Below, in pieces: positions 993 to 55,574 of a stretch of 64,000 nt of DNA (position 1 is the stretch's first letter; every line of letters begins with the position of its first letter). The notes under the pieces are model-generated. The model was not told the DNA's origin and ran no database searches. It saw only the letters and a list, made by a program, of their open reading frames with translations. The stretch comes from a bacterium (GTDB lineage: Bacteria > Patescibacteriota > Minisyncoccia > Phycocordibacterales > UBA918), in assembly GCA_043719295.1 (NCBI GenBank), contig JAYSUD010000005.1, positions 98,077 through 162,076 of the forward strand, read 5' to 3'. The translations under genes and the position numbers were made by a program.

Positions 993-1332
993 ACATAATT
1001 ATATTAGCACGGGTTCTAAGACGGGAATCTCTTTCCCTACGGGAATGGTATGCCTTTTGGATGGATTGGTACGCTTCGCTTCCAATCCATCACAAAAGCC
1101 TTTCGAGTCCCTTTTTGGATGTGTCCGACACATCCAAAACTCTCGCTCGTAACATAAAATGGCCGTTGCTGTGGCAACGACCATTTTATTAACTGGTCAC
1201 GAGTTACTAACTATAATTGTTCGCTTCGCTCCAATTCAAGTAAGTACTCTCGACCCCGCCTCGACTGTCGCAAGCGACATGTCTATGGCTCGCAGTTAGG
1301 CACGGAAGCAAAGCAGTTTGCTTCCTAAAAAG

Positions 1333-1375: not shown

Positions 1376-1688
1376 CGCGAGAGACGGGACTCGAACCCGC
1401 AACCTCTGCCGTGCACTGAATTCATTATTTTCATAATGGCGTGGACTATATCTTTACCATGAGTCTTTCGACTGTTAGGTACCCCGGTATCTAGTCTCTA
1501 CGGCGCCCCCATACTATGTGTTTTTGTATATGGGGTTCCCTCGGTATTCGCATATCTAGTAGTGCTTATTGGGCACTATTTCAAACGACTTAGCCTTCAC
1601 CGATATCCCGGAGAGTTTCAATCCTAACTTTCGAAAGGAAAGCTGCACGTCTACAGGGCAGCGCTCTAACCAATTGAGCTACTCCCGC
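1376..1688 (-). tRNA. tRNA-Asp(GUC) interrupted by a ~239-nt group I-like intron in the anticodon loop
   Basis: 5' half (1653-1688; acceptor GCGGGAG, D-arm GCTC-AATTGGTTA-GAGC, anticodon stem CTGCC) and 3' half (1376-1413; GGCAG, variable AGGTT, T-arm GCGGG-TTCGAGT-CCCGT, acceptor CTCTCGC, discriminator G) are both canonical; splicing at 35/36 gives loop CTGTCAC and a T-arm identical to bacterial tRNA-Asp; 5' exon ends in U and intron ends in G; alternative junction 33/34 would give UGC. Confidence 0.6.
1414..1652 (-). other. putative group I intron (no internal ORF) inside tRNA-Asp
   Basis: 239-nt intervening sequence between canonical tRNA halves; boundaries U|...G| fit group I rules; size matches known tRNA group I introns. 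Confidence 0.45.
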
Positions 1689-5757: not shown

Positions 5758-5995
5758 ATAATTACATTTATAACACACTTTTCAGATTATGCAACAATTA
5801 CCGTGAGTCAATTAGACATCTCGAATTTTAAGTGGTATTCTCTTTGTGCACTATTGAATATAGCGGGGTGAGAAAGCGAATACATGGAGCTTTCGTAAGA
5901 CTTTGACTGCTATTTTAAAAGGCTTGACCGAATTAAAATAGCGGCAAAGTGTAAAGATCCTGTAAGGATGAGGAGTGATGGGAGTATAATAATAT

Positions 5996-6066
5996 AGCGG
6001 GGTAGAGGAGTGGTACCTCGGGAGGCTCATAACCTCCAGACCCCGGTTCGAGTCCGGGCCCCGCAA
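5996..6066 (+). tRNA. tRNA-Met(CAU), initiator-like
   Basis: anticodon loop CTCATAA; 1:72 mismatch (A:A) and A11:U24, both initiator hallmarks; T-arm CCCGG-TTCGAGT-CCGGG. Confidence 0.65.
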
Positions 6067-6075
6067 CAAACATAT

Positions 6076-30092: not shown

Positions 30093-30650
30093 TCAAACAA
30101 CATCAACCAACTCAGGGAATGCATCTGTGCCCATTTCGATTGTAATGTAATGCCCATGATTGGGTAATTCAGTCACTTTGCAATCTAATTTTGTAGTGAT
30201 TATATTTCTGCTTGTTGTACCATCCTTATCTTCAGTATTAGAGGAGAATACAATTCTTTCACCAACTCTTTCTTTTATGCTTTCATCAATTTTAAAATTG
30301 TAAAAATCTTGAATAGACTTACTATCACTTTTGGTGACAAAATTTGGTGCAACCATAATTAGCTTAGCAATGGATATTTTAGTTTCTCCAAGCCACCGCA
30401 CCAGAAACGCACATCCTCGACTATGCCCAATGAGCACTGAATCTTCATCTACTCTATATTTTTCAAACTCAGTTTTCCATTCTGCATATTCACAATTCCA
30501 AGGATTCGGCATTGATGGAGTAATAGTGATTATCCCATTGCTTTCAAGTTTAGATTTAACCCATGGTAACCAATACATTGTATGAATATGATGAGGTGTT
30601 TCTTCCTTATCAGATAGAGGTCCCCCGTGAATGATAATGCAGGTTTTCAT
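30093..30650 (-). CDS. alpha/beta hydrolase (YdeN/RBBP9-like serine hydrolase)
   Basis: GHSRG nucleophile elbow. Confidence 0.6.
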   Translation of the reverse strand: MKTCIIIHGGPLSDKEETPHHIHTMYWLPWVKSKLESNGIITITPSMPNPWNCEYAEWKTEFEKYRVDEDSVLIGHSRGCAFLVRWLGETKISIAKLIMVAPNFVTKSDSKSIQDFYNFKIDESIKERVGERIVFSSNTEDKDGTTSRNIITTKLDCKVTELPNHGHYITIEMGTDAFPELVDVV

Positions 30651-30762
30651 GTACGAATTAGTGTAGCAAAATTCTGGAAGATGAGGGAATTTCTACCCTT
30701 ACAGGGTCAGTACCCCGATTGGATATTTTAGTTCGCTTCGCTCCTAAACTATCTCAATCTGG

Positions 30763-30875
30763 CTTCGAATCCCTCCGCACGTGACATTTAGTCACGTGCT
30801 CATCTTCCGCGAACAAAATATGCGCCCTTGTGGGGCGCTATTTTGAATCGCGGAAGATGAGGGATTCGAACCCTC
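30763..30875. repeat. extended inverted repeat: inverted copy of the 3'-terminal ~25 nt of tRNA-Ser(ACU) (30763-30775 + 30799-30811) facing the tRNA 3' end (30849-30875), with two nested hairpins
   Basis: reverse-complement comparison of the flanks. Confidence 0.7.
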
Positions 30876-30937
30876 GAAGGATTTAACTCCTTGGCAGTTT
30901 AGTAAACTGCTGCTTTCAGCCACTCAGCCAATCTTCC
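30851..30937 (-). tRNA. type II (Ser-like) tRNA with anticodon ACU (loop TTACTAA)
   Basis: 87 nt; acceptor GGAAGAT/ATCTTCC, 3-bp D-stem GCT/AGC, long variable arm (AAGGA-GTTAAA-TCCTT), T-arm GAGGG-TTCGAAT-CCCTC, discriminator G; anticodon stem GCAGT/ACTGC. Confidence 0.65.
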
Positions 30938-31151
30938 AATATATTCGCTTCGCTCAAATTGTAACCCTACGGGAGGATTAACTTCGTGTCTGCCACGCAG
31001 ATGAATCTGCGGTAAAATATGAAGAAGTTCATATTGAACCCACGGAGCCAATCTTCCACAGGCGGGGGTATTATAGACTGAAATTGGTTTGTTTCAAAAT
31101 ACATAGTTCGGTGCGATAATGGTGTCCTGAATTCCTTATCTCTACTTATAT

Positions 31152-32642
31152 ATGTACAGCACCTTAAAACAATACTTTGGATACGATACGTTTCGACCGT
31201 TACAGAAAGAAGTTATAGACAAGGTAATGGAAAAAGAAGATTGTTTGGTACTTATGCCAACAGGTGGTGGGAAATCACTTTGTTTTCAATTGCCTGCATT
31301 ACTCCAAGAAGGGATAACTATTGTTGTGTCGCCACTTATTTCTCTCATGAAAGATCAGGTAGATGCACTTTTGGGGTATGGGATTAGTGCGGCACTTTTA
31401 AACAGTTCGCTAACGGGAGAACAGATGCATGAGGTTATAGAAAAGGCAAAAAACGGAAGTATCAAAATCCTCTATGTTACCCCTGAGCGTTTAGCACTTG
31501 TCCAATTTGAAGCTATTTTGCACACTTTAGATATTAGTTTGTTTGCCATTGATGAAGCACACTGCATCTCAGAGTGGGGTCATGACTTTAGACCAGACTA
31601 TCGAAACCTAAAGTCACTTAGACAAAAGTTCCCAAGCGTCCCCATCATTGCACTTACCGCTACCGCAACTCCAAAGGTGCGCGATGATATTGTGCGACAA
31701 CTTGCACTTCCTTCTCCCCACATCTTTACCTCAAGTTTTAATCGACAGAATCTTTCGTATGAAGTGCTCCCAAAAAAAGATTCTTTTGGTACTATCCTTT
31801 CTCTTATATCCCTCTACAAAGACGAAAGCATCATCATTTATTGTTTCTCTCGTAAGGACACGGAGACTATTACGGACAAACTTCAAGCTCAAGGATATAA
31901 CGCGGGTGCATATCACGCAGGACTGTCCTCAGACAAACGCCGCGATAACCAAGAAAAATTTATTCATGACGATATTCAAATCATGGTAGCAACCATTGCT
32001 TTTGGTATGGGGATTGATAAACCCGATGTGCGGCTTGTTATTCACCATAGCTTACCTAAGTCTATAGAAGGCTATTACCAAGAAACGGGTCGTGCGGGGC
32101 GTGACGGACTTCCTTCGCGGTGTGTATTGTTATTTTCAACCGCTGACAAATTTAAACAAGACTACTTTATAAACCAACTACGCGAGAGCGAAGAAAAAGA
32201 GCAAGCGCAACAAAACCTCGACCAATCAGTGACCTATGGGACACTAAGCGGGTGTAGGCGTAAATTTTTGCTTCAATATTTTAATGAACGGTATGAGGAA
32301 CATAACTGCGGCAATTGCGACCGTTGTGTTACTCCTACTCCTTTAACAGTACATAAACTCAAATCGAAAAAAAGTGTTGCGCAAGCTGCATCAGTATTCA
32401 CTGACAATGCACACTACGACACCTCACTGTTTGAGGTCTTGCGACAAGTACGTACGAGCGAAGCCTCACGTCGCGGAGTTCCCCCCTATATTGTGTTTGG
32501 CGATAAAACACTCCATGAAATGGCATTGCATAGACCACAAAGTGATGAGGACTTTTTAAACATTAACGGTGTAGGTGAAAAAAAGTTAACCCAGTTTGGA
32601 GAGATTTTCATGAGTGCTATCAGGCAACATACTGCTCCATAG
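31152..32642 (+). CDS. recQ: ATP-dependent DNA helicase RecQ
   Basis: Walker A PTGGGKS; DEAH box (AIDEAHCISEWGHDFRPDY); RQC Cys cluster. Confidence 0.85.
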   Translation: MYSTLKQYFGYDTFRPLQKEVIDKVMEKEDCLVLMPTGGGKSLCFQLPALLQEGITIVVSPLISLMKDQVDALLGYGISAALLNSSLTGEQMHEVIEKAKNGSIKILYVTPERLALVQFEAILHTLDISLFAIDEAHCISEWGHDFRPDYRNLKSLRQKFPSVPIIALTATATPKVRDDIVRQLALPSPHIFTSSFNRQNLSYEVLPKKDSFGTILSLISLYKDESIIIYCFSRKDTETITDKLQAQGYNAGAYHAGLSSDKRRDNQEKFIHDDIQIMVATIAFGMGIDKPDVRLVIHHSLPKSIEGYYQETGRAGRDGLPSRCVLLFSTADKFKQDYFINQLRESEEKEQAQQNLDQSVTYGTLSGCRRKFLLQYFNERYEEHNCGNCDRCVTPTPLTVHKLKSKKSVAQAASVFTDNAHYDTSLFEVLRQVRTSEASRRGVPPYIVFGDKTLHEMALHRPQSDEDFLNINGVGEKKLTQFGEIFMSAIRQHTAP

Positions 32643-34507: not shown

Positions 34508-34909
34508 ATGAAAATAATCAATATACTTTTTAAAATTGTTTTCGGTCTTATCGTTGCATTACCAATTCCAGGTGCGCTCGGCATCTTTCCTCCTCCAACA
34601 AGAGATCTCTACAACACGCAAGAGGCGTTCGATTTTATTCTTGCTCTCATGAACGTTGGGTACATTACGTCAATCATGGCCGTTGTATGTAGTATCATTT
34701 TGTTTTTGATGCTAACAAAACGTATGGCTTTTGCATCACTTTTAATTCTCCCCATTACTGTAAACGTTGTTGCATTCCATGCGGTTATTGACGGTGGATT
34801 GTTTACAAGTGGTGCGGTACTCGGAAATATTATGCTTGCACTAAACATCTACTTCCTCTGGCAAAGTCGTGAGGTATACAAGACGCTGTTAGAGAAGCGC
34901 CCAGTGTAG
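34508..34909 (+). CDS. hypothetical membrane protein (4 TM)
   Basis: ORF with hydrophobic helices. Confidence 0.35.
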   Translation: MKIINILFKIVFGLIVALPIPGALGIFPPPTRDLYNTQEAFDFILALMNVGYITSIMAVVCSIILFLMLTKRMAFASLLILPITVNVVAFHAVIDGGLFTSGAVLGNIMLALNIYFLWQSREVYKTLLEKRPV

Positions 34910-35046
34910 GTTACATGTCGAAGCTGGATACTATGAAAATGCATCAAACCCAAGGCATTGCCTTGGGTTTGATGGTTGCGGAGGGAATTTCGGTCATTAC
35001 ATGACCAGTATCTGTTGTCGCTCTTTTTCCAAAAGAGCTGGCAACA

Positions 35047-35142
35047 GCTTCGAATCCCTCCTTTTCTCGCAAATGCAACAAAACCCAAACAAAGCTTTGG
35101 CTTTGTTTGGGTTTTGGCATTTGCGGAAAAGGAGGGATTCGA
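35047..35142. repeat. ~45-bp near-perfect hairpin whose outer arms are the tRNA-Ser(GCU) 3' end (35125-35142) and its inverted copy (35047-35064)
   Basis: reverse-complement comparison; inner arms cgcaaatgcaacaaaacccaaacaaagc / gctttgtttgggttttggcatttgcg. Confidence 0.7.
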
Positions 35143-35209
35143 ACCCTCGAGGGTTATTCACCCTACTTTCTTAGCAAGAAAGCACAATCGGCCTCTCTGA
35201 CACTTTTCC
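35124..35209 (-). tRNA. tRNA-Ser(GCU), type II
   Basis: 86 nt; acceptor GGAAAAG/CTTTTCC, anticodon stem CTTTC/GAAAG loop TTGCTAA, variable arm AGGGT-GAATA-ACCCT, T-arm GAGGG-TTCGAAT-CCCTC; D-arm irregular in hand fold. Confidence 0.6.
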
Positions 35210-35226
35210 TTATTCGACATAATACG

Positions 35227-36216
35227 TTATTTCAAGTACCTTTTCAAATGCTTTGGATTATGAGTTCCAATTTCTTTCATGTACCGAGCAACATCGTGGA
35301 TTGCATCAATACGAACATTGGTTCCACTACATGTGGCAGTACTCCCGAATCGATGCAGAATAAATAACACCTCGTTTCGAAGCGGTTTTGAAGCGGAAGA
35401 AAAACATAATTTCTTATATTGATACTCCTTACCTCCTACTTTATATTTATGGAGATACACTGAACCATCTGTATCCATTAATCCTCGTAGACATGCCGAG
35501 GAATATTCTTCATTTTCTAAAATCCATGCAGGGATATGTACCTGCTGTTTCACTTTGTTACCTATAACGAGTCCTAGGGATACAAGAAAGATGACTGCCT
35601 TTTTCCGTGCCAAAACAATACTATGTGCATGTGCATCTTTACGAACATACACACTTGGCATCACCCCAAATAATTTTTGCATCAATGATTTAACAAACAA
35701 CCCATATTCAAAATCATCAACAGAATGTAAAGTGACCGACACCTGATACTGTGTCAGTCCTCCATCGCCAAGCATGATGCCTATAAATTCAGCAAGTTTA
35801 TTATTTCTCACTGGTATACAAATATTTTTTGTAAAAAAATCTGCTATTTCAGTTTTTCCGCCATTATCAAACCATCTACGCCAACTCTCTTTGCGCACTG
35901 TTTCATTCACAGGAACTCTGCCATACTTTTTCATTACTGCGGAAGAACCTGCTAAACCAGCCCGACTAGTATGCTCATAGCGATTAATTTGACAGACTCT
36001 TGGGACAAGCATATTGGCTTCTTTTGCGAGCAAAACTAGACTCTCATATGGCATCATAGTTTTACCTAACTTCCATCCACGAATTGTACGGTCCGAACAA
36101 TTGCAAATTTTTGCCATACGACCTACTGATACTTTATCGCATGCTTTTGACATCCACAGGGCTTGTTTTTCTATCGAAGCAAACTTTGCTTTTTTATCTA
36201 CTAAAGAATCTATCAT
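35227..36216 (-). CDS. LAGLIDADG homing endonuclease (two-motif) with N-terminal HTH
   Basis: motifs EFIGIMLGDGGL and LRGLMDTDGSV; HTH near the N-terminus; directly upstream of tRNA-Ser(GCU). Confidence 0.8.
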   Translation of the reverse strand: MIDSLVDKKAKFASIEKQALWMSKACDKVSVGRMAKICNCSDRTIRGWKLGKTMMPYESLVLLAKEANMLVPRVCQINRYEHTSRAGLAGSSAVMKKYGRVPVNETVRKESWRRWFDNGGKTEIADFFTKNICIPVRNNKLAEFIGIMLGDGGLTQYQVSVTLHSVDDFEYGLFVKSLMQKLFGVMPSVYVRKDAHAHSIVLARKKAVIFLVSLGLVIGNKVKQQVHIPAWILENEEYSSACLRGLMDTDGSVYLHKYKVGGKEYQYKKLCFSSASKPLRNEVLFILHRFGSTATCSGTNVRIDAIHDVARYMKEIGTHNPKHLKRYLK

Positions 36217-54887: not shown

Positions 54888-55280
54888 GGGGATGCTAGGC
54901 ATCGACGGTTAGTCCCTGCTGTTGTGTGCAGTGTCAAAAGAGCATGTGGATTTGTAAAAATACATGCAACACTTACGTGCTAAGAATAACGTAGTAAGTC
55001 CATACTTCTCGAAGTTGGATCTCGTACCCGCTCTCGCGTAACCCGCGACGGCCGGTCGACATTGTTTCTCTTGAGGTTTCATAGAGAGAATTGCAGTGTA
55101 ATAAAAATGAAACTTGAAAGTAGTACCCCTTCCTAGTACTACTTAGACCTTCTTAGGAATCGAGAGTGTACGATTTTGTTTATCTTATACGTCCACCCTT
55201 TAAATCAAAAGAAATACTACACACTGTAGACGCGCGATAGCAACCTAATTCGGACGTGGATTCAATTTCCACCATCTCCA
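54888..55280 (+). ncRNA. ssrA: tmRNA (ssrA), one-piece
   Basis: 5' GGGGATGCTAGGCATCGACGG (conserved TCGACGG); 3' tRNA-like end GTGGA-TTCAATT-TCCAC + CATCTCC + A; G3:U70 alanine determinant; candidate tag ORF (A)KNNVVSPYFSKLDLVPALA* at 54979-55041. Confidence 0.8.
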
Positions 55281-55574
55281 CAATTTAAAAATCTGCACAC
55301 ATTTTTCGTGGGCGATTTTTATTTGTGGAGATGGTGAACAGGCAAACTGCTTTGCCTGTGTGAAATTGAATCAAGCGGAAGCATGTTGCCTTGCAACAGC
55401 TGAGCTCGGGGAGGAAGTTCTTAGTAATTTAGGAACGAAGTGAACTTAAGTACTTAGAAACTTGACCCTTCAATTTCCACTATCTCCACCGACACATAAA
55501 ATCACTCAGATCCATGAGTGGTTTTATGTTTTATTTGGCACGGTGACCCACGGAAGTATGTCATACTTATATAT

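Follow-up and report, generated by a model that had tools for sequence, protein, structure and literature searches.

The window analyzed here is a stretch of 64,000 bp (positions 98,077 to 162,076 of contig JAYSUD010000005.1) from a bacterium of the candidate phyla radiation (CPR/Patescibacteria). It contains a gene for tRNA-Ser with the anticodon ACU (ARAGORN; Rfam RF00005 tRNA, 56.4 bits), which is followed by a unit of about 200 bp. On the tRNA strand, the unit starts with a bidirectional terminator, followed by an inverted copy of the tRNA 3' end, an optional hairpin named Pa, a core, and a direct copy of the tRNA 3' end. The features of the locus are as follows, all on the minus strand, with sequences given for this strand.

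30938..31058: leader, from a promoter-like site to the tRNA; it contains small hairpins, the GAGCGAAGCGAA motif once more (30944-30955) and, at 31040-31058, 19 nt copied from the tRNA 5' end
30850..30937: tRNA-Ser, anticodon ACU; its last ~25 nt ("X": T-loop, T-stem 3' strand, acceptor 3' strand) are copied in the element
30812..30849: trailer and bidirectional terminator-like hairpin, GC stem at 30822-30838; the A-run/T-run flanks also pair
30800..30811: CGCGGAAGATGA, the acceptor 3' strand in inverted copy, together with the discriminator and the first bases of the trailer
30777..30799: hairpin Pa, GCACGTGAC-TAAAT-GTCACGTGC, exactly at the acceptor/T-stem boundary of the inverted copy
30682..30776: conserved core, match to the covariance model R1 described below (cmsearch, 98 bits, E = 2.3e-22)
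30770-30775 paired with 30683-30688: closing helix P1b
30764-30770: inverted copy of the T-loop
30714-30762: long hairpin P2, tip GAGCGAAGCGAA at 30732-30743
30708-30713: GUACUG motif
30694-30708: hairpin P3, GUA loop at 30700-30702
30688-30693: T-loop-derived GAAAUU
30676..30687: distal direct copy of the T-stem 3' strand and acceptor 3' strand, CCCTCATCTTCC

An earlier note on this locus had listed an inverted copy of the tRNA 3' end split by a perfect hairpin, a direct copy, a copy of the tRNA 5' end upstream and two TTCGCTTCGCTC boxes bracketing the whole. All of these were found again, some of them with corrections. The inverted copy is located at 30761-30811. The inverted pairs are 30761-30775 with 30859-30873 (15 nt, 93%) and 30799-30827 with 30833-30861 (29 nt, 79%; inverted repeat I1). 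The hairpin CACGTGAC/ATTTA/GTCACGTG at 30778-30798 is indeed perfect, but it is a conserved module of a family, hairpin Pa, instead of a mere interruption and no accident of the tRNA-Ser(ACU) locus. The direct copy starts at 30676 and not at 30677, and 30676-30688 are identical to 30852-30864 in 13/13 nt (GGAAGATGAGGGA). The 5'-end copy CCACnnAGCCAATCTTCCA is present at 30920-30938 and 31040-31058 (89%). One TTCGCTTCGCTC box is at 30944-30955 as stated and the other one had to be moved to 30732-30743; this motif, too, is a conserved family module, the tip of hairpin P2, and not specific for the locus. The distal and the inverted copies can pair into a 12-bp helix with the sequence of the acceptor/T-stem stack of the tRNA.

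Taken singly, these repeats were just borderline in comparison to dinucleotide shuffles of 30500-31200: an exact direct repeat of at least 13 nt occurred in 6 of 500 shuffles and an exact inverted repeat of at least 14 nt in 28 of 500. They are judged to be real because of the evidence at the level of the family, the search pattern and the covariance model, and not by the statistics of the single repeats.

The hairpin at 30822-30838 was scored as a terminator on both strands (terminator scan) and shows the GC-rich stem and following T run of an intrinsic terminator, which accounts for just about 40 of the about 260 bp. The earlier note had also mentioned a long hairpin that would sequester the 3' strand of the tRNA. 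This hairpin is the predicted minimum-energy fold of the read-through transcript (-129.9 kcal/mol, z = -10.9), and its formation would need read-through of the terminator-like hairpin. Upstream of the tRNA, the strongest promoter-like site, TTGAAA-16-TATAAT at 31070-31097 on the minus strand, is located just ahead of the 19-nt copy of the tRNA 5' end and not of the tRNA itself. It appears that about 100 bp were inserted into the 5' region of the tRNA, whose first 19 nt were duplicated in the process, and that a structured leader is the result. This leader may contain fragments of another element, a relic that we only infer because model R1 did not match in 30938-31058 at E <= 1.

A family of tRNA-anchored units with covarying helices

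A search pattern with 23 fixed bases, GATTCGAA-N35-65-TACTG-N5-GTA-N6-GAAATTC, was built from the two tRNA-Ser loci of the window. It matched twice in the window, compared to 0 matches in 100 shuffles, and twice in the closest relative, contig L002 (loci are given as L with a number), in both cases behind tRNA-Tyr. Further copies in metagenomes, considered in the earlier note, were numerous, with at least 120 matching stretches as opposed to about one match expected by chance according to our own estimate. The analysis covered the 64-kb window, metagenome stretches, and contigs rather than whole genomes. Covariance model R1 was built from 31 ungapped 95-nt cores (alignment A1). It identified 135 copies in 100 metagenome loci, which had been ascertained by the pattern derived from the window, 31 additional copies in 24 loci, and copies in the GTDB contigs L002 and L013, the latter with a RecQ that is 68% identical to the RecQ of the window.

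The units are anchored to tRNA 3' ends. Seventy-five of the 135 units started a median of 70 nt after a tRNA on the same strand, representing 21 anticodon types. The other 60 were composed of 18 units behind another unit, 13 at contig ends and 29 remaining ones, several of which follow group I intron-split tRNA-Asn genes missed by ARAGORN. Intron-split genes for tRNA-Asn and tRNA-Asp that escape the standard tools have been described (PMC13011429). Seen from the tRNAs, a unit was located behind 75 of the 107 tRNAs in the fetched loci, which were themselves selected for carrying a unit.

The core contains, in this order, the long hairpin P2, GUACUG and the short hairpin P3 with its GUA loop. 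In alignment A1, the fold starts with a 6-bp closing helix of T-stem sequence, followed by the reverse complement of the T-loop. P2 has 8 bp, a bulge and another 10 bp, and its tip is often GAGCGAAGCGAA, which is the TTCGCTTCGCTC box on the tRNA strand. P3, with 5 to 6 bp and the GUA loop, is followed by the T-loop-derived GAAAUU and the second strand of the closing helix. The terminator module is present behind the tRNA in nearly all family members. A pseudoknot of the GUA loop with the UAC of GUACUG was considered and rejected on geometry because a 3-nt loop cannot pair fully.

This fold is conserved. In A1 (n = 31), 87.0% of the cells were paired compared to 63.8% in shuffled alignments, 26 of the 32 pairs were changed on both sides, and the covariation score was 0.557 compared to at most 0.156 for slid partners. 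The alignment of the 135 sequences, which was fitted to the model, had 88.9% paired cells compared to 59.4% after shuffling and 38 to 53% in slid controls, with compensatory changes at 32 of 32 pairs. Evaluation of all these values needs to consider that the sequences are related and that the effect of palindrome correction might look like that of selection. GUACUG and the GUA loop were also near-invariant in 31 units that did not match the search pattern. Judged by these alignments, the unit qualifies as a structured single-stranded element, either of RNA or of single-stranded DNA (ssDNA).

The family is modular. P2, P3 and the Pa types were freely combined among the copies. When Pa is present, its position is exactly between the 7 nt of the inverted acceptor and the 5 nt of the inverted T-stem, separated by linkers of 2 to 3 nt; homologues with compensatory changes in the stem occurred in L002 (TGAGTGAC..GTCACTCA), L071, L031, L049 and L076, and Pa was missing from some copies, for instance that at 34980-35061 of the window. 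As a separate observation, another conserved structured segment of about 100 nt was often located between the tRNA-Ser 3' end, or the end of a gene, and the terminator of the unit. It was seen in L063, L083, L104 and L134 (…GGTTCTAACTCGAGnnnnCCCGC) and in L115, L130 and L146, there at 1095-1190 (GACCCGAGTRCC…GGTACTTAACCCGAGTGGCCCGC); it ends like a degenerate tRNA 3' end and had no match in Rfam.

The terminal arms vary from copy to copy and are equal to the end of the local tRNA. Among 73 units, the distal copy agreed with the local tRNA in all 13 positions in 32, the inverted T-stem in all 5 positions in 48, and the inverted acceptor with the reverse complement of the local tRNA in all 8 positions in 34. 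The inverted copy spans the T-loop, T-stem 3' strand, acceptor 3' strand and trailer of the neighboring tRNA; since it includes the complement of the trailer, it copies the gene and not the mature tRNA. The direct repeat varied in length from 13 to more than 60 nt. Of 73 copies, 27 had a repeat that started at the T-loop and stopped within 2 nt of the tRNA 3' end, another 27 had a decayed repeat, and in 5 the repeat continued through trailer and terminator. Both junctions follow variants of the local T-loop: TTCGAGT is accompanied by ACTCGAA and GAGATT, and TTCGATT by AATCGAA and CGATT. Some unit-bearing tRNA-Tyr genes (L002 7452-7535, L058 and L091) contain a mismatched T-stem, GAAGG versus CCCTC, and their 3' strand agrees with the arms of the unit and not with their own 5' strand. 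This hints that units may be able to convert tRNA 3' ends.

Whether the fold acts as RNA or as DNA was addressed by comparison of the two strands. Of 122 cores, 97 had a P2 that folded better on the tRNA strand and 25 one that folded better on the other strand. Among the 1x1 mismatches flanked by Watson-Crick pairs, 56 were of the G-U type and 23 of the A-C type on this strand, a ratio that shrank to 18:9 after dereplication (p = 0.12); on fixed paired columns it was 120:90, or 73:52 when dereplicated. This G-U bias is weak for a structured RNA. The nearest downstream open reading frame (ORF) was co-oriented with the unit in 70 cases compared to 38. With the terminator directly upstream, there is no space left for a promoter. 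Given the weak G-U bias and the upstream terminator, the fold may act in read-through RNA or in ssDNA, or may persist by palindrome correction.

Locus L151, with a hydrolase 88% identical to that of the window, keeps CGAAATTC-ACTCATCTTCC-AGAATTTTGCTACAC-...ATG ahead of the hydrolase gene, and this conserved stretch comprises the distal tRNA-Ser(ACU) end plus the native leader of the hydrolase. The distal copy thus stays with the downstream flank, as expected of a displaced original 3' end. Upstream of it, L151 contains tRNA-Trp, its terminator, a Trp-specific inverted arm, Pa and P2, which indicates that a rearrangement has taken place inside the element. The more distant relative L152 contains tRNA-Gln and another type of unit at the equivalent place. 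Elsewhere, units form tandem arrays (L002, L051, L060, L101 and L105) with up to five units in 2.5 kb, and decayed relics occur as well as, in L111, nested insertions within hairpin loops. Cores that are 94% identical were located behind different tRNAs in L051, assigned to tRNA-Ser by its arms since no tRNA was detected upstream, and in L052 (tRNA-Gln). Within a contig, near-identical cores were limited to tandem or segmental duplicates.

No ORF family was generally linked to the units: the 757 flanking ORFs clustered into housekeeping families and a LAGLIDADG-like ORF. The latter was found immediately adjacent to the tRNA 5' end in 9 loci, as well as at 2 of the 3 full units of the window, and was rejected as a general partner because 9 loci are too few. 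A tie of this ORF to a spread of units driven by double-strand breaks is possible. One representative is the ORF at 35227-36216 on the minus strand, which has an N-terminal helix-turn-helix-like region and ends 18 nt before tRNA-Ser(GCU); homologues in L038, L041, L048, L056, L075, L090, L115 and L124 are in most cases directly 5' of the unit-bearing tRNA. Another one, at 1666-2343 on the minus strand, abuts the 5' end of tRNA-Asp and is reminiscent of a free-standing homing endonuclease next to an intron without endonuclease. In L146 (465-1400), an ORF of about 500 nt, HIT-like by eye, is located between tRNA-Ser(CGA) and its unit, with a repeat of the tRNA 3' end and about 30 nt of its trailer on either side. 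By its layout, this would be a larger, cargo-bearing version of the direct-repeat arrangement.

Searches of Rfam 15 gave nothing relevant for the window, for 30550-31200 with E <= 10, or for 11 related loci, and a full-text literature search found no description of such a tRNA-anchored element. A tRNA-trailing module of about 200 bases is widespread in the ultra-small bacteria of the CPR/Patescibacteria and apparently undescribed. It belongs within the known interspersed structured intergenic repeats and tRNA-anchored insertions; the new and unprecedented aspect is that the arms are programmed by the neighboring tRNA.

Possible origin and function of the units

The best explanation, held with moderate confidence, is that the unit is an old, non-autonomous insertion module located between attachment-site (att)-like direct repeats of the tRNA 3' end. 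The repeat proximal to the gene would complete the working tRNA and the distal repeat would be the displaced original end. The module may have entered tRNA loci, and may be reshuffled between them, via recombination in the near-universal T-loop/3'-end sequence. Palindrome-type conversion or selection could keep the inverted arm matched to the local tRNA, and the hairpins would be kept intact in single-stranded form, as RNA or DNA. As side effects, the module might provide a terminator for the tRNA gene and dispersed homology for genome rearrangement. The suggestion of the earlier note, a tRNA-targeting miniature element, comes close to this explanation.

Several observations weigh against the insertion module. 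No clean empty site and no pair of filled and empty alleles were found among the relatives compared: the RecQ-based loci from 28 GTDB genomes shared no common synteny, and the relatives selected by the hydrolase were rearranged. The identity of the cores had a mean of 54% within a contig and 46% between contigs, and the divergence of cores within contigs means that there is no sign of recent bursts. Types of trailer and terminator tend to follow the tRNA type, a pattern for which long vertical residence is no worse an explanation than mobility. The integrase or recombinase genes that the earlier note had suggested looking for on the contig were not found in the window: no integrase, recombinase, transposase or reverse transcriptase domain was identified by Pfam on its 62 ORFs, and no recurrent recombinase was apparent among the 757 flanking ORFs, the largest clusters of which were inspected by eye and not all by Pfam. 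Pa is located exactly at the acceptor/T boundary with linkers of 2 to 3 nt, which looks like tRNA architecture and favors an RNA mimic. Finally, the mechanism that would provide each new tRNA with its own inverted arm is one that we infer.

Elements with tyrosine integrases target tRNA genes at the T-loop, and Campbell-type integration restores the tRNA 3' end. Their att sites in tRNA genes have reportedly been treated by Williams in 2002. As in these sites, the insert has on either side a direct repeat of the tRNA 3' block that includes the T-loop, the proximal one completing the tRNA and the distal one staying with the old flank; the flanking repeats required of an att scar are present (13/13 nt here) and no integrase was found. 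Unlike integrated elements, the units measure just about 200 bp without integrase or cargo, carry an extra inverted copy of the att block plus a covarying hairpin core, and are located behind over 20 types of tRNA, with arms that match the respective tRNA and with up to 5 units in tandem. The att-site scar of the earlier note is therefore retained insofar as the direct repeats behave like attL and attR, but not as a single scar, since 4 copies are present in the window and at least 120 elsewhere. A prophage or integrative element that used a tyrosine integrase to enter tRNA-Ser and subsequently lost everything except its att arms would explain why the stretch between T-loop and 3' end is present in direct repeats, and is nevertheless very unlikely. 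The unit of about 200 bp is found again and again, behind over 20 types of tRNA and no fewer than four times in the window, where no integrase was found. Viral contigs yielded 0 matches for the main pattern and for two of three subtype patterns, and the sole match of the third one, L150, is a unit between tRNA-Ser(GCU) and tRNA-Ser(ACU), in this order. An inverted copy and a covarying core are also not known as features of att arms, which counts against a classical scar.

Alternatively, the units may be host-functional RNAs that mimic tRNAs and are transcribed on the tRNA strand by read-through or from a start of their own, a possibility with some weight although clearly a tentative one. In such a fold, the acceptor/T-stem minihelix would be that of the partner tRNA, with Pa in place of the tRNA body and P2 and P3 at the elbow. 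The mimic is proposed to be recognized by RNase P, RNase Z, the CCA-adding enzyme and T-loop modifiers, and to serve as a processing or punctuation signal for neighboring transcripts or as a decoy or partner of its tRNA. The 12-bp closing helix equal to the acceptor/T-stem stack agrees with this proposal, as do the constant position of Pa at the 7/5 boundary across Pa types and tRNAs, the compensatory changes that hold the helices although the copies are just about 46 to 54% identical, the near-invariant unpaired GUACUG and GUA, and a terminator of their own after many units. The excess of G-U over A-C, the better folding of P2 and the co-oriented downstream ORFs point to the tRNA strand as well, but this bias is weak when fixed columns are counted or the sequences are dereplicated. 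The terminator-like hairpin directly upstream leaves no space for a promoter, the acceptor part of the closing helix has decayed in about half of the copies, and the left junction is the plain reverse complement of the local T-loop, even for variants that would break a T-loop fold. A sister subfamily contains the core without tRNA-derived arms, and tandem arrays and relics would be odd for a dedicated RNA gene. A gene in the opposite direction, a convergent tRNA-like gene on the plus strand at 30676-30811 that shares the bidirectional terminator with tRNA-Ser, is highly improbable. Its 3' part, TTCGAAT-CCCTC-(hairpin)-ATCTTCC-GCG followed by the terminator, is exactly tRNA-like and the fold of the plus strand has z = -5.95, but no tRNA was called on either strand of 30676-30811 even at E <= 10 (ARAGORN and Rfam RF00005), no promoter-like site is located upstream on the plus strand, and the T-stem 5' strand is not adjacent to the T-loop. 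The better folding of P2 and the weak G-U bias both point to the minus strand instead.

The units could also be by-products of replication or repair, in which template switching at the terminator hairpin and the T-arm led to a direct-inverted-direct triplication of the tRNA 3' end. Quasi-palindrome correction instead of selection would then keep the hairpins, and the core would spread by gene conversion using microhomology in the T-loop. The copies are indeed direct, inverted and direct, with an inversion that is centered on the terminator loop and ends exactly at the T-loop; the trailer complement in the inverted arm agrees with a copy made from DNA and not from the mature tRNA, and the near-equal counts of G-U and A-C with a process at the DNA level. 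A direct repeat through trailer and terminator is what this process predicts as the usual outcome for the second direct copy, but it occurred in just the 5 of 73 copies mentioned above. The native hydrolase leader comes after the distal copy in the window, a junction conserved in L151, and template switching leaves the conserved unpaired motifs and the core common to 21 tRNA types unexplained; such an origin is therefore considered unlikely. The single repeats, borderline as they were against the shuffles, might suggest chance repeats around a simple terminator, yet this is next to impossible in view of E-values of 1e-18 to 1e-22, the lack of pattern matches in 100 shuffles, the at least 120 metagenome stretches, and a covariation far above the shuffled and slid controls.

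Other known systems share some properties with the units. The REP (repetitive extragenic palindromic)/BIME/REPIN sequences, miniature inverted-repeat transposable elements (MITEs), and Correia/ERIC elements are likewise short, non-coding, multi-copy hairpins in intergenic regions, often just after genes, with tandem arrays, terminator-like hairpins, decayed copies and a role as substrates for rearrangements. Unlike these, the units have no conserved terminal inverted repeats or fixed target-site duplication, their arms are copied from a tRNA, and their copies are deeply diverged and strictly anchored to tRNA 3' ends. In contrast to MITEs, the arms vary with the local tRNA and the core identity within a contig averages 54%. 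No RAYT/Y1 transposase domain was found in the 64-kb window, and the conserved GUACUG before P3 is not the REP head, which is of the GTAG type. The t-elements of plant mitochondria and mascRNA-type RNAs also place a tRNA-derived acceptor/T-arm-like helix beside other transcripts, which by analogy could be a substrate of RNase P or RNase Z; in the units, however, the T-loop is replaced by a two-hairpin core of about 75 nt, each copy mimics the adjacent tRNA, and the likeness is one of sequence. In integron attC sites and the forked-hairpin attP of the CTX phage, two inverted, target-like copies about 80 to 100 nt apart could similarly fold into a duplex that mimics the target, with a structure conserved above the sequence and an extrahelical feature, here Pa, on one strand. 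This is a pure analogy, and the conserved unpaired motifs and the terminator module of the units have no counterpart there. DUP-TRP/INV-DUP rearrangements (duplication with inverted triplication) and quasi-palindrome correction would give a tRNA 3' end that is direct, inverted and direct, with switch points at two natural palindromes, but the units share a foreign core between the inverted and the last direct copy, and this last copy is usually without trailer and terminator. The unit thus fails one defining test of each of the systems likened to it: no integrase, no conserved terminal repeats, no cloverleaf and no Rfam match.

Additional candidates were rejected. A tRNA-Sec, a split or permuted tRNA, or a T-box as identity of the 135-nt segment did not agree with the helices, as judged by eye, and there was no call for a tRNA or an Rfam family. 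A self-cleaving ribozyme, retron, group I or II intron, bridge RNA or omega RNA had neither a match in Rfam nor an adjacent protein gene; for the noncoding RNA of a retron, there was in addition no reverse transcriptase domain in the window and no linked ORF family. A primer-binding site of a retroelement was rejected for the inverted arm because the arm complements the genomic trailer and not CCA.

A more far-reaching interpretation, somewhat doubtful at present, regards the units as a new class of "target-programmed" elements, in which each copy has both strands of the T-arm/acceptor end of its own tRNA and a single strand would fold into a replica of the top half of the tRNA with a conserved two-hairpin core as its cap, either as an ssDNA attachment site or as "shadow tRNAs." In the former case, a mini-element without cargo could recombine with any tRNA gene via the universal T-loop and then re-specify its arms. 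In the latter case, there could be one structured RNA per tRNA gene, recognized by the tRNA-processing enzymes. If such programming by the target is true, it would be a mechanism without described precedent and widespread in the CPR. The genomes of CPR/Patescibacteria are tiny and tightly packed, yet the module is retained behind a large share of the tRNA genes, where it supplies a family of natural terminators. If the module is mobile or recombinogenic, this would explain breaks of synteny at tRNA genes, such as that between the window and L151, and the T-stem mismatches in some tRNAs; if the module is an RNA, the biology of the CPR would gain dozens of transcripts per genome that mimic tRNAs. 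For annotation, units give rise to false ORFs and tRNA-like fragments.

Other units and tRNA genes of the window

The window is an ordinary chromosomal stretch of CPR/Patescibacteria. The closest relative of its RecQ is from a Kaiserbacteria metagenome-assembled genome (80% identity) and most of the remaining RecQ relatives are from CPR genomes; its housekeeping genes include those for a type IV pilus, ComF, LigA, GatC, FtsH, SmpB and IF-3. Model R1 matched 4 copies in the window, with 98, 81.5, 80.3 and 33.3 bits. Units were behind 3 of the 7 tRNA loci, and none was found downstream of the two tRNA-Met genes or tRNA-Ile(UAU) of the window. In addition to the copy behind tRNA-Ser(ACU), the features are as follows.

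34942..35122 (minus): second full unit, behind tRNA-Ser(GCU) at 35123-35209, 81.5 bits
35079-35116, 35056-35070 and 34980-35061 (minus): terminator, inverted arm and core (without Pa) of the second unit
34942-34974 (minus): second terminator on the distal side of the second unit, where the direct copy CCCTCC..GCAA is preceded by GAAATTC
1020..1114 (minus): third full core, behind the intron-split tRNA-Asp(GUC), 80.3 bits
1653-1688 and 1376-1413 (minus): exons of tRNA-Asp(GUC), with Rfam Intron_gpI at 1422-1669
5897..5976 (plus): degenerate copy of the sister subfamily, matching model positions 12-88 with 33.3 bits (E = 5.5e-06) and located shortly before tRNA-Met (5996-6067)

The unit behind tRNA-Ser(GCU) repeats the layout of that behind tRNA-Ser(ACU), with inverted and direct copies that match the 3' end of its own tRNA. 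The junctions of the third core copy the variant T-loop of tRNA-Asp, TTCGAGT, as ACTCGAA and GAGATT. The tRNA-Asp(GUC) gene itself, which is missed by ARAGORN, contains a group I intron of about 239 nt between anticodon positions 35 and 36. This intron matches the class described in PMC13011429, and split tRNA genes of this kind are missed by standard tools. Short ORFs of 50 to 79 amino acids overlap units at 34849-35120 and 30899-31051, both on the minus strand, and could be miscalled genes.

A second, longer type of core is located between tRNA-Asp(GUC) and the third core, at about 1185-1330 on the minus strand, and also in L136, L144, L149 and L152 (2790-2900). It contains …GCGACAGTCGAGGCGGGGTCGAGAG, a hairpin with the GAGCGAAGCGAA tip and …GTGACC, with the same T-loop-derived junctions, and is not matched by model R1. 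The sister subfamily has the P2/GUAC(A)G/P3-GUA core of the family, and its junctions GGGTGAG…CAAGAC are not derived from a tRNA; in L153, at about 1100-1480 on the minus strand, three of its units are arranged in tandem in ordinary intergenic DNA. The transfer-messenger RNA of the window (54888-55283, plus strand) encodes an unusually long tag peptide, AKNNVVSPYFSKLDLVPALA, and is not followed by a unit.

The tRNA-Ser with the anticodon ACU (A34) coexists with a normal tRNA-Ser(GCU) in the window. In bacteria, A34 is unusual outside of tRNA-Arg(ACG), and a tRNA-Ser(ACU) would misread AGA if the adenosine was deaminated. The same tRNA is present in three other CPR loci, L017 (7269-7356), L025 (6645-6732) and L150 (10531-10618). 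Because the ACU anticodon recurs, once directly beside tRNA-Ser(GCU), these sequences suggest that tRNA-Ser(ACU) may be a duplicated GCU gene.

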